Source of the DNA: Eledone cirrhosa
Lineage: Eukaryota
Length of the DNA stretch: 64,000 bases
Assembly (NCBI GenBank): GCA_964016885.1
Contig: OZ024742.1
Span: forward strand, 178,808,001-178,872,000
Reading direction: 5' to 3'
Each line of letters opens with the position of its first letter. Within the stretch, counting starts at the first letter, position 1. A program made the translations under genes and the position numbers. Of this stretch, positions 13,939 through 64,000 are shown piece after piece. The notes under the pieces are model-generated. The model searched no databases. It saw only the letters and a list, made by a program, of their open reading frames with translations, and was not told the origin of the DNA.

Positions 13939-13999
13939 TATTTTATCTGATGAAAGCGTACCAAAGTTTTGGTACCCTTGAAATATATATAATAGAATA
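13939..13999 (+). ncRNA. Type I hammerhead ribozyme (canonical core)
   Basis: Stem I TATTTTAT/ATAGAATA; CTGATGA; stem II AAG-GTACCA/TGGTAC-CTT; GAAAT-ATAT-ATA. Confidence 0.85.
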
Positions 14000-22126: not shown

Positions 22127-22345
22127 CGAAGGAAATGTGGTAAGGAACCAGGTGGACCATAACGCACCAAAGTACTCAATATTTAGGGTAGTAGAGTGGG
22201 TAATATGAACGAGTAGGACCCCGACGGCTGAGCTCAAGCCGTTTCGACGGCTAATTCTGGACTAAATTAGCCCAGAATTAGCCCTAAATTAGTCCAGAAT
22301 TAGCCGTCGAAACGGCTTGAGCTCAGCCGTCGGGGTCCTACTCGT
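22123..22345 (-). mobile_element. Family A fold-back pLTR element
   Basis: Long arm starting ATAACGAAGG, fold-back at about 22260-22295, short arm ending in (TA)n. Confidence 0.88.
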
Positions 22346-23197
22346 ATATATATATATATATATATATTTATATAAATATATATATATATATATATACAAA
22401 TATATATATAAATATATATATATATTTATATATATATAAATATATCAAACATCCTTGGAACTTACCAACTTTTCAACCATCCTCTTACGTCATCACCTAT
22501 ATAACTCACCCACACACACACACCCCAAACATTTTTTTCTCCACACGCCACCCACACCCACAACACGCTTAAACCCCACACACACGTGCTTCCCACCACA
22601 TATTTACACCCTCAGCCTCCTGATTCCTCTCCCCCCACCCCCCTATCCACACACGCACAAACACTCCGACCCACAAAAACACCCCCCACACACACCTCTT
22701 CCTGAACATGCAACCCCGTTCTTCCCCCAACCCTCACTTTCACATACACACACACACACACGCACACCTACACACACACACCACCTTCAGCCCTCCCCGC
22801 TCGGACACCCGTCTCCCTCTCCCCACTCCACCCGCCACCACCCCTACTCACCCCACACCCTTCCACCACCTGTTTACTCCCCTTTTAATTTCAGTTTATT
22901 TTGATCATGCCTTTATTTTTAAATTTTCTCATTCCTTGTATTTTGATCATGCTTTATTTTTATTTTTTATATTTTTTGTCTTTATTTGTTAATTTTTCAT
23001 TCGCACCGTTTCCTTTCGCTATATGTCTCTCCACCACTCCCCTACACACCTTTTGAACTCTGTTCCCACACACTTCTCACCTGAGGAAGGGCGTATGCCA
23101 GAAACGTCGTCCCCCACCTACCCCCCACTCTCCTGAGCCTGAATTTAATAAACATTTATTGTACTGCCTCTCTGTTCTGTCCCTGTTCAAATTTTTC

Positions 23198-23308
<111 letters not shown>

Positions 23309-24875: not shown

Positions 24876-25418
<543 letters not shown>

Positions 25419-36544: not shown

Positions 36545-37080
36545 ATCACGTGACAGTCATAATTTCATTTATAACCAACAAATTGCATTTAAAAAAAAAA
36601 GCCTTCGTAGGCCACTTTTTTTATTGTCATAAAATTCTCTAAAAGGCTACAAAATTAATTCCCAAATACGGGCGCGAAATTTAATGAACTTGTTCACGTG
36701 ACAGTCATTATTTCATTTATAACCAATCAAATTACATTAAAATAAAAAAAGCCTTCGTGAGCCACTTTTTTTATTGTCATAAAATTCTCTAAAAGGCTAC
36801 AAAATAAATTCCCAAATACGGGCGCGAAATTTAATGAACTTGTTCACGTGACATCCAATAATTTCATTTATAACCAATCAAATTACATAAAAAAAAAGCC
36901 TTCGTGAGCCCCTTTTTTAAGTAAAAAGAATTTCAAACACTGATATATGAAAAAAACAACCTGTGCCCCCCCCCCTTGTTTGAAGAACTTTGTAACGAGA
37001 ACTGGCGCGAAATTTATTATACTTATTGACCAACCAATCAAATTACTTCTCTAAAAACCTGGCGTTTCCATATAAAACAA
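36545..37080 (+). promoter_or_regulatory. 149-bp tandem promoter module of a PLE pLTR (E-box, CCAAT, E2F; TATA)
   Basis: CACGTGAC at 36547, 36696 and 36845; AACCAATCA; GGCGCGAAA three times; TATAAAA at 37071. Confidence 0.65.
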
Positions 37081-37237: not shown

Positions 37238-37320
<83 letters not shown>

Positions 37321-37323
<3 letters not shown>

Positions 37324-37661
37324 CGAAGGAAATGTGGTAAGGAACCAGGTGGACCATAACGCACCAAAGTACTCAATACTTAGGGTAGTAGAGTGGGTAA
37401 TAGGAACAAGTTAGACCCCCTACTTCTCCTACCGGCAGGTTTAGCTACCCGTTCCTCCACCAATTTGCCATCACAGATTTACTACTAACTTGTGATGTGA
37501 CCAATGCTGGTGATTACCTCTTTGACCATATATGGAATTACCCCTTGATAAGCTCGGCTATTTAAATACCAGAATAAATTTTCATTCAGTCCAGAATTAG
37601 CCGTCGAAACGGCTTGAGCTCAGCCGTCTTTTAAAAAATTAAAATTGGGGTCTTACTTGTT

Positions 37662-37665
<4 letters not shown>
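37321..37665. mobile_element. Longest family A copy, containing the complete hammerhead
   Basis: Antisense tail 37321-37419 followed by a sense pLTR segment. Confidence 0.85.
37540..37651 (+). ncRNA. Family A hammerhead, U3-A8 variant, 18-nt insertion at the cleavage site
   Basis: Stem I ACCCC/GGGGT; TTGATAA; stem II CGGCTA/TAGCCG; GAAAC-GGCT-TGAGCTC-AGCC-GTC. Confidence 0.7.
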
Positions 37666-37726
<61 letters not shown>

Positions 37727-37727
<1 letters not shown>

Positions 37728-38240
37728 ATTAAGTTAAAAATGTACATCCACATATGTATACTGAAATACTAGTATGCATATGAATACACACACGTGTACA
37801 TATGTAGATGTACCGAGTTTTTCACTGGTCACTTTACTGTGAGTGTCCAGCTATTCTGTATGTAAACACACAGACAAACCGGTTTTTAGAGTCATACTGG
37901 TTTTTGAGGAAACACCTTTCCTCTATTCTCCAGAAAGCCAGACAAGGAATATTGGACTAGTTTCGATGTTGTTACATCTCATCAGCAATATTTACCTATC
38001 TTCTGGCCTTTCTAGAGAATCGTAAAAGCACATATCGTTATATGCTTTTTCTATGAAAATTAGTAGTGGGCAGACTAATTTGCATAGAGCATGAGTACGT
38101 ACCGGTTCAACGGAGACGATAAAAACAAATAACGAAACGAAATTAAATTTCGTTTCGTTTGTAACTCACTTTTGTATGACTGACGCTTAAACAATTAAGT
38201 TAAAAATGTACATCCACATATGTATACTGAAATACTAGTA

Positions 38241-38288: not shown

Positions 38289-38291
<3 letters not shown>

Positions 38292-38483
38292 CGAAGGAGA
38301 TGTGGTAAGGAACCAAGTGGACCATAACGCAGTACTCAATACTTAGGGTAGTAGAGTGGGTAATAGGAACGAGTAAGACCCCGACGGCTGAGCTCAAGCC
38401 GTTTCGACGGCTAATTCTGGACGGCTAGTTCCAGAATTAGCCGTCGAAACGGCTTGAGCTCAGCCGTCGGGGTCTTACTCGTT

Positions 38484-38488
<5 letters not shown>
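38289..38488 (-). mobile_element. Family A fold-back element
   Basis: Family A consensus; loop CTGGACGGCTAGTTCCAG. Confidence 0.88.
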
Positions 38489-38544
<56 letters not shown>

Positions 38545-62789: not shown

Positions 62790-64000
62790 GGCATAATACG
62801 AAAAGGATCAGGACTCCGACGGCTGAAAACCATCGATGAAGAGATCCTCCTGGAAATCAACAATAAGACTGAAGGCCCCAAGGTAGAGAAGATCTCTAAA
62901 TTATGGAAAGGGGACTGCAACAGAGAAGAATTGAAATCCCTTCAACGCTGGGAAAAAAGTGCCGCTTGGTTCCTAAACTATGAATCGACTTTTCAAACGG
63001 ATTACACCTCCAATAACCCGTTCATAAAAATAGGAAAATCCATAACCGAACCGCACAACAACTTCGCAAACCCACCAGCCACTAACAAAAGAAGGAAGTA
63101 CCACACCGAAGATGAACTTCCCAACCTCGCTACCATAAGAAGGAACAAAAACCCTAGAAGTCATCACTCCCAGAATAACATTTACAACTTTCCCCCTTCA
63201 AGGAGACACCATACCAAATCACTCAACTACTACGCGGATGCCTCATCATCAAACATAGCGAAAAGATACCACCACCATGATAGATGTAACAACTTCCCCG
63301 CTTCAAGGGGACAGCAAGGTAATTTCCATATTCTCAACTCTCGCTTCCACAATACACAACAAACCCACACCACACGATACAACCAACAACGTAGGCCACC
63401 TATAACACCAAAATCCAACATGGCACATAGAAACACACATCCATACTCGCAATACAGGAACACCCCATTCAATCTACAACCACGAACCCGAACCACATTT
63501 TACAACAACAAGGAATATAACAAACACAGGAGACCACTTAACATCAGCAGACAACCCCTCTACCCCAACCATTTTTTAGACACAGCACACAGATACAAGC
63601 AAACAAAATAACACAAGACAGGGAGGAGAAACCGAGAGTAATAAAAAATATCAATCTAACTACTGCAGAACCAACACCCAACCTTATCAACTTACTCTCC
63701 AAAGGTCTTAAATTCACACCGACCCCACTACGTCCTAACTACTATGAAATGAAGGAAGACATCACAAACTTCTGTAGAAAGTTACGACTCAGTGAAGAAG
63801 TATTCTACCAGTACAATCAGGATGAATCATTAGCCAGAAATAGAAGCAACTACACCTCATCAAAAGGTAGGAATAAAATCCTGGACGAATTCTGTGAACA
63901 CTTGCACAGACAAAAACACAAGCCAAACCTCAACAAGAAAGAATGGGAAGAATTAAATAGATTAAAAACCGACAGAACCATTACAATTAAAGAGGCTGAT
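62790..64000 (+). mobile_element. Penelope-like element 5' region: upstream ORF plus RT N-terminus in the -1 frame, running off the window
   Basis: The -1 frame from 63572 is open to the window end: INL...LLSKGLKFTPTP...F.RKLRL...NLNKKEWEELNRLK.DRTITIKEAD (PLE N-terminal motifs preceding DKG). Confidence 0.88.

Follow-up and report, generated by a model that had tools for sequence, protein, structure and literature searches.

The locus described here raises the question of whether cleavage of a retrotransposon RNA by its own hammerhead ribozyme can be read from the DNA that was copied from it. In the window, by which we mean the whole 64,000-nucleotide stretch of Eledone cirrhosa contig OZ024742.1 that was analyzed, one copy of a hammerhead-bearing repeat (family A) contains an 18-nt run of A/T only at 37629-37646, without a flanking duplication. 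It is preceded by GTC (the C being position 37628) and followed by GGGGTC (from 37647). A preliminary description of this DNA had placed the insert exactly between these two motifs and held them to be contiguous in other copies. This is borne out by the window itself, where all other matches to the GTC/GGGGTC junction are contiguous (14/14, with 0.56 matches expected by chance). The copy consists of two arms in opposite orientation between stretches of microsatellite, with the following layout:

37241..37320, no strand: (TA)n target, left flank (start approximate)
37321..37419, minus strand: inverted long-tail arm, the reverse complement of the predicted downstream cleavage product from +99 to +1, ending at the predicted cut
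37420..37666, plus strand: direct arm, in which about 210 nt of pseudo-LTR precede the cut (to 37628) and are followed by the insert and 20 nt downstream
37629..37646, plus strand: 18-nt A/T-only insert at the predicted scissile bond
37647..37666, plus strand: predicted downstream cleavage product from +1 to +20, comprising the stem I 3' strand and the short-tail end
37667..37728, no strand: (AT)n target, right flank (end approximate)
38289..38490, no strand: adjoining ordinary short palindromic copy, representing the comparison class, with two arms that extend past the cut and no catalytic core

In the parent copies the sequence after the junction reads GGGGTC...CCTTCGTTA and then passes into (TA)n, and the inverted arm of the window copy mirrors those 99 nt. 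The direct arm from 37420 to 37628 is 97% identical to the parent copies, and a CC microhomology at 37418-37419 connects it with the inverted arm. The earlier claim that the antisense arm stops at GACCCC holds for the end as such, but the exact base in the window copy is known only to within 2 nt because these two C's are common to the joined sequence (the parents read ...TCCCTTTTTCTCC). Two further features of the window may be recorded here, namely a tandem duplication of about 150 nt at 36600-36900, immediately upstream of the insert-bearing copy, and a divergent match resembling the junction at 62812-63000 (minus strand), which adjoins a coding-looking open stretch.

The predicted ribozyme and its parent element

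In contrast to the short palindromic copies of the window, the insert-bearing copy carries a whole predicted type I hammerhead, which we parse as follows:

37534..37544, plus strand: stem I 5' strand, with ACCCC at 37540-37544 (pairing with 37647-37651) and a distal GGAA at 37534-37537
37545..37551, plus strand: catalytic core U3-U4-G5-A6-U7-A8-A9 (UUGAUAA), in which U3-A8 replaces C3-G8
37552..37605, plus strand: stem II (37552-37560 with 37598-37605) and a long loop II, from a constrained fold
37606..37628, plus strand: GAAA, stem III (37609-37613 with 37623-37627) and C17 (37628), the predicted scissile position, in a GUC triplet

The GAAA box, stem III and the NUH triplet of a type I hammerhead are all present in the last of these segments. 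Stem I forms in the free fold while stem II forms only in the constrained one, which at -25.5 kcal/mol is 2.4 kcal/mol above the free minimum of -27.9 kcal/mol (z -1.5), and an Rfam search of the hammerhead region at the gathering score returned no match; hence, ribozyme activity is only predicted. Likewise, self-cleavage after C17 is a prediction that draws on the enrichment of genomic junctions presented below. A tally of the stem III pairs across copies, which are too alike for such a comparison to be informative, contained no compensatory changes.

Exact matches to the core number 4,550 genome-wide against 33,975 intact junctions, and most copies are thus devoid of it. Among the best 100 of these 4,550 core matches the majority combine U3-A8 with T or G at position 7, one subfamily has a C3.A8 mismatch, and none has the canonical C3-G8; a U3.G8 variant is seen twice. 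The U3-A8 variant has been described in the Penelope-like elements of Schistosoma (PMC4209133). As characterized there, the hammerheads of Penelope-like elements, including those of Schistosoma mansoni, share with the present one the type I fold, U3-A8 and additional unpaired nucleotides at the foot of stem II. The present version differs from them in that stem III is a full hairpin of 5-6 bp, for which reason the predicted ribozyme RNA could act as a monomer.

The parent is a Penelope-like retrotransposon of about 3.5 kb with the hammerhead in its pseudo-LTR. Its open stretches of 598-801 aa lie between cut sites 3.5-3.7 kb apart and contain YxDD and GIY-YIG-type motifs, which were read by motif; Pfam matched 0/3 parent proteins. 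The protein further displays DKTG, RWR (not RWK), CNCPDRSSC, CNLC..E and CKH motifs, no CCHH, and, by inspection, one Cys inside the GIY-YIG core. The endonuclease is C-terminal, which rules out the Naiad clade. At the loci L119-L125 the coding parent is arranged in tandem units of 3.5-3.7 kb, and one of these loci (L120) also has pieces of other Penelope-like RT/GIY-YIG frames. The two 3' ends of the family, at +20 and +99, both lie in (TA)n, which fits the optional tail and microsatellite targets of endonuclease-bearing Penelope-like elements. With the Hydra clade (PMC8557442) the parent shares the C-terminal GIY-YIG, DKT, RWR for RWK, a CxCX5C linker and CxxC plus CxH around the catalytic E and N, as well as (TA)n targets, tandem and inverted copies, and a hammerhead in the pseudo-LTR. 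It departs from that clade in having a length of 3.5-3.7 kb as opposed to 'generally <3 kb', and U3-A8 as opposed to a canonical hammerhead, both being only tendencies in that paper. Going by motifs and (TA)n targets, we file the parent as Hydra-like rather than as a member of the Hydra clade because its length and core deviate and Pfam gave no match. Elements of this type, with such a tail and with inverted copies, are in themselves already known.

Insertions and arm ends at the predicted bond

A genome-wide search at the bond for inserts of 2-32 nt that do not start with G recovered 13 copies, 11 of which contain A/T-rich runs of at least 5 nt; the other two, one a rearrangement and one a 2-nt insert, were dropped. 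As a position-blind control, seven consecutive A/T were sought anywhere in a 26-nt span around the bond, wherein 27 junctions are possible. This control, which because of its gap limits is a little less sensitive to very long inserts close to the anchors, produced 21 hits, including 11 clean insertions, every one of them at the bond ((1/27)^11 = 2e-16). The remaining 10 hits are eight element ends running into (TA)n, one substitution, and one replacement that starts at the bond. Among 100 of the 130 insertions of at least 4 nt, most are tandem duplications and inversion joints; four are A/T-rich and at the bond, and one is A/T-rich but away from it, with a flanking duplication. In union, the searches yield 16 distinct inserts of 5-42 nt, found in all three subfamilies, two of which are placed only to within 1 nt.

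These 16 different inserts, at one bond and on different contigs, render it scarcely credible that the insert is an assembly error or a chance insertion affecting the window copy alone. In favor of such an error, the insert is uncovered in four sequencing runs aligned to it: none of the reads or contigs of X1, X2, X3 and X15 spans it. However, these runs appear not to contain the locus at all, since at most 0.55 of the words of the stretch are shared with them and nearly all of them have A as against this copy's T at 37412. In X1, X4, X16 and X17 no insert at the cut reached the 1% floor for reporting, a level far above the approximately 0.05% expected.

Copies with extra G's at the junction, which form the majority of the best 100 of 267 crossing joins, were considered as further cleavage scars and rejected. 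Their real partner arms all cross the cut (17/17, after two automated 'stop' calls were dropped as spurious; four copies are without a partner) and the core is present in only 4/23 of them, which points to slippage in the G-run.

We then examined the ends of long-tail arms whose departure from the template falls between +8 and -12 (21 positions). The search found 965 such arms, of which 100 were classified by hand. Twenty of these display a 23-nt microhomology deletion, a duplication/deletion that also surfaced in the insertion searches and was set aside since an 8-nt repeat explains it, and four are small indels, leaving 76 classified junctions. In this sample of 100 of the 965 arms, 34/76 junctions are at +1, i.e. 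the cut; the next most frequent position, +2, has 6 and any other position at most 4. A script run on 30 fetched loci agrees with the hand classification. Nine of the 34 are spacer-free and could be -1 ends joined via CG; when they are excluded 25/76 are left at the cut (p = 6e-15 versus a uniform spread). The search pattern misses certain kinds of junction, among them fold-backs at the TGAGCTCA palindrome of the stem III loop.

We found 311 head-to-head joins genome-wide with 0-8 nt between two +1 ends. The 50 that are listed include 13 with no spacer, 12 with a single A/T, 14 with other untemplated spacers and both arms ending at +1, two that are ambiguous on one arm and nine whose arms extend past the cut by a few templated bases. 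For 26 of these 50, both arms stop exactly at +1 with an untemplated spacer, and the -1 G is missing on both. Similar joins are found in independent contigs of the sequencing runs X1 and X2. In all 25 joins examined a +99 end is paired with a +20 end, a pattern that priming by both target strands at two internal start sites would produce (PMC11167929). Set against the 33,975 intact junctions, the 16 inserts and 311 joins are rare scars.

Most arms, however, end 33-48 nt upstream of the bond (40/65 background junctions), those ending at +1 being a minority. The upstream ends cluster near TCAGT/TTAGT (e.g. window 22223-22331, 25260-25335 and 38383-38468), a motif that we take to resemble an initiator. 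The cluster may represent an internal transcription start past the ribozyme core, giving RNAs unable to self-cleave.

The copies with inserts are distinguished from the background in two respects. First, the core is kept in 14/16 of them, two lacking it, versus 12/50 background junctions (p = 9e-6); in an alignment-based background 9/65 junctions reach as far as the core. Second, in the hand-curated set the partner arms of insert copies end at or before the cut in 6/6 cases as against 4/28 background elements (p = 1.6e-4), with three ends at +1 and one each at -1, +3 and +6. In curating the partner arms, four automated calls among the insert copies were discarded as fortuitous AT-rich matches, while in the background nine palindromes that had been counted twice were merged and five mutated arms were re-read as crossing. 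That the partner arm never crosses in these six suggests that in these cases the RNA being copied began with a free 5' end at +1. The subfamilies also differ in this regard. All loci with the C3.A8 mismatch read GGGGTCC (5/5), although one GGGGTCC copy with U3-A8 was also seen, and the subfamily so linked contributes 8/40 joins as against 54 of 100 listed intact junctions (8:32 versus 54:46, p = 3e-4). Its fewer cut joins could also be due to its age or expression. Five inserts come from this subfamily (e.g. L064, L146 and L151).

Could such junctions form with no cleavage of RNA, by processing of DNA hairpins, by self-complementary CCCC/GGGG ends, by polymerase stalling at stem III or by nicking by the endonuclease of the element? 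Palindromes are indeed the majority of copies, and the 13 spacer-free joins among the 50 listed could form via the CG microhomology at -1. Yet this does not extend to the 26 joins in which neither arm has the -1 G and the spacers are untemplated. Moreover, the arm ends peak at +1, within a run rich in G and C, no upstream position having more than 4 of them (100 of 965 listed), and strand-biased A-rich inserts, enrichment of core-bearing copies and a core-linked difference between subfamilies are unexpected from DNA hairpins that mostly have no core. We hence hold an origin of this type to be very improbable. Cleavage is the reading that we prefer: judged from the genomic DNA, the junctions very probably record it as an event in vivo. 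The preliminary description had interpreted the breakpoints as genomic fossils of cleavage in vivo and had proposed that junctions and insertions be checked for enrichment at position 17/1.1 across copies. Its interpretation gains support from a strongly positive outcome, with 11/11 insertions, 34/76 arm ends (from 100 of 965 listed) and 311 joins at that position.

The origin of the inserts

The inserts themselves have a distinctive composition, with A 180, T 66, G 23 and C 7 over all 16 when read in the RNA sense. T accounts for 25/64 of the first four bases and 41/212 of the later ones, and three of the 16 inserts (two 9-mers and one 16-mer) are T-rich. By comparison, head-to-head spacers of 9-39 nt are only nine in number; most of them repeat local or palindromic sequence and a single one is A/T-rich, suggesting that cDNA ends by themselves rarely gain long A-runs. 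The long A-rich runs occur almost only where downstream sequence is joined to upstream sequence; they would thus need the 3' end of the upstream product, as an RNA tail would provide. As a separate observation, the joins at L180, L184 and L186 have 19-36 nt of unrelated sequence between their two +1 ends, two of these spacers being near-palindromic; possibly they are captured foreign templates.

Based on these observations we propose the following sequence of events. The element protein would nick both strands of a (TA)n target, and two cDNAs would begin at the tail sites +99 and +20, respectively. If the template is a read-through RNA with a whole hammerhead, it would be cut after C17, creating a new 5' end at +1. 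A cDNA reaching +1 would usually run off, gain 0-7 untemplated bases (most commonly one A), and the two ends would be joined head to head. Rarely, the upstream product would acquire at its 3' end an A-rich, often U-first, tail and the reverse transcriptase would jump end to end, copying first the tail and then the upstream pseudo-LTR. Finally, microhomology would join the two cDNA ends. Initiation of cDNA at two sites on both nicked strands has been shown in vitro for another Penelope-like element (PMC11167929). Taken as a whole, insertion from an RNA template cut by its own hammerhead, with one arm ending at the cut and the other crossing it via a copied tail, is the likely explanation and the best that we can offer.

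Within this scheme, the short additions of 0-7 nt are best understood as marks of cDNAs that reached the end of the cut RNA and ran off, whereas the long inserts point to a tail and a template jump. The original suggestion of non-templated addition or template jumping at the cut end accordingly survives for the short additions at run-off ends and is refined for the long inserts, which suggest an RNA tail plus a jump instead of addition alone. An alternative that likewise accepts cleavage sees in the long inserts untemplated DNA, supplied while the jump or the end-joining took place, either by the reverse transcriptase or by a repair polymerase. The reverse transcriptase of R2 does gain extra bases at template run-off (PMC3774820), the three T-rich inserts are what addition of dA to the cDNA predicts, and an 11-nt piece of the window insert recurs in its 3-kb locus, although such matches are common in AT-rich DNA. 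The overall excess of A over T in the RNA sense (180 versus 66) is nevertheless the opposite of that prediction. Furthermore, spacers at cDNA ends are confined to 0-8 nt in 311 cases and just one of the nine longer ones is A/T-rich, while the best 100 of the 267 crossing joins include seven long A/T-rich inserts and no single-A/T insert. We therefore view untemplated DNA as an unlikely source, and RNA tails crossed by a jump of the reverse transcriptase as the probable one.

A further alternative is that the cut RNA was tailed and then re-ligated or circularized, so that the insert was copied from the mended RNA without a jump. Circular RNAs are made by hammerhead retrozymes (PMC7229834, PMC4918200), and there are tandem 3.5-3.7 kb units between cut sites in the present family. 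However, if a single RNA molecule served both arms, both should cross the cut with the same insert, and 0/6 do so; moreover, all 16 inserts differ, and thus none of them was amplified. This renders re-ligation rather improbable. A tail copied by a jump remains our preferred account, and it can be put in a more specific form. Cells are known to put mixed A-rich or U-first tails on RNA decay intermediates. By a slight preference, we would interpret the inserts as fossil RNA 3' tails, often U-first and then A/G-mixed, that were placed on the upstream product after opening of its cyclic phosphate and were captured by a jump of the telomerase-related reverse transcriptase.

If the inserts are RNA tails, they show how the cell handles the 3' end made by a ribozyme and indicate that this enzyme is capable of end-to-end template jumping. 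If the fossil-tail reading is true in full, the genome keeps a record, one molecule at a time, of how the ribozyme cut in the germline and how the ends were then repaired and tailed, and counting junctions would give a measure of ribozyme activity in vivo for each subfamily. The data further suggest that cleavage mostly aborts copying, giving head-to-head stubs of about 120 bp, and is only rarely bridged.

Related elements and other hammerhead families

Among known systems, the PAc Poseidon element of the green anole (PMC11167929) resembles the present family in that two internal reverse-transcription start sites define the tail, both target strands are cut and extended, and the targets are AT-rich. 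The tail of PAc is 30-40 nt long as opposed to 79 nt in the E. cirrhosa family. Cleavage of PAc RNA is dispensable in vitro, with uncut RNA as the main template, and the RNA-seq reads reported in the available text neither begin nor end at the cut (PMC11167929); in E. cirrhosa a minority of the genomic copies appear to derive from cut RNA. The R2 element with an HDV-like ribozyme (PMC3774820) offers a parallel from a different ribozyme and element class: its genomic 5' junctions mirror the ribozyme cut, with microhomology joining, template jumps, and untemplated bases gained when the enzyme runs off. In R2, however, the cut sets every full-length 5' end, and the account of it consulted here describes no A-rich run rejoining the upstream product, unlike the inserts of the present family. 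Finally, the metazoan non-LTR retrozymes have type I hammerheads related to those of Penelope pseudo-LTRs, but they are short tandem non-coding repeats with circular RNAs (PMC7229834; bioRxiv 10.64898/2026.07.22.740005), whereas the present family has a coding parent and inverted pairs.

The reading of a ribozyme cut from genomic junctions is thus already known for R2 (PMC3774820). As for the endonuclease-bearing Penelope-like elements, the paper on the Hydra clade calls the function of their hammerheads unclear and has, in its available text, no junction evidence (PMC8557442), and evidence in vivo for Penelope-like hammerheads is stated to be lacking in PMC4209133. Our literature search, which covered main articles, mostly open-access, found no prior report of evidence for cleavage in vivo by the hammerheads of endonuclease-bearing Penelope-like elements. 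The junctions of the present genome, hundreds in number, pinpoint the predicted bond with single-base precision, and in vivo hammerhead cutting in such elements is therefore testable from assemblies alone in any genome that is rich in them.

The window also contains hammerhead-like sequences of other families. One of these had been taken for a third breakpoint of the same kind, with the sequence after GTC failing to pair as stem I:

23081..23111, plus strand: hammerhead-like core of a different family, not a breakpoint

This interpretation has to be withdrawn because the same unpaired sequence follows GTC in 6/6 copies found. The family to which it belongs (23081-23200 in the window; L189-L194) has a hammerhead core, stem I pairing in 0/6 copies and ends in (TA)n, and is likely a decayed pseudo-LTR. 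One head-to-head join was found in the hammerhead family represented at window 37985 (minus strand), and it crosses the cut of that family; this second family is much rarer, being represented by 7 junctions versus 289 in a set biased to family A. Together with that at 37985 (minus), further hammerhead-like cores in other repeat families are found in the window at 13947 (plus), 20362 (plus), 18728 (minus), 39232 (minus) and 48832 (plus), several of which have a minimal palindromic stem III.
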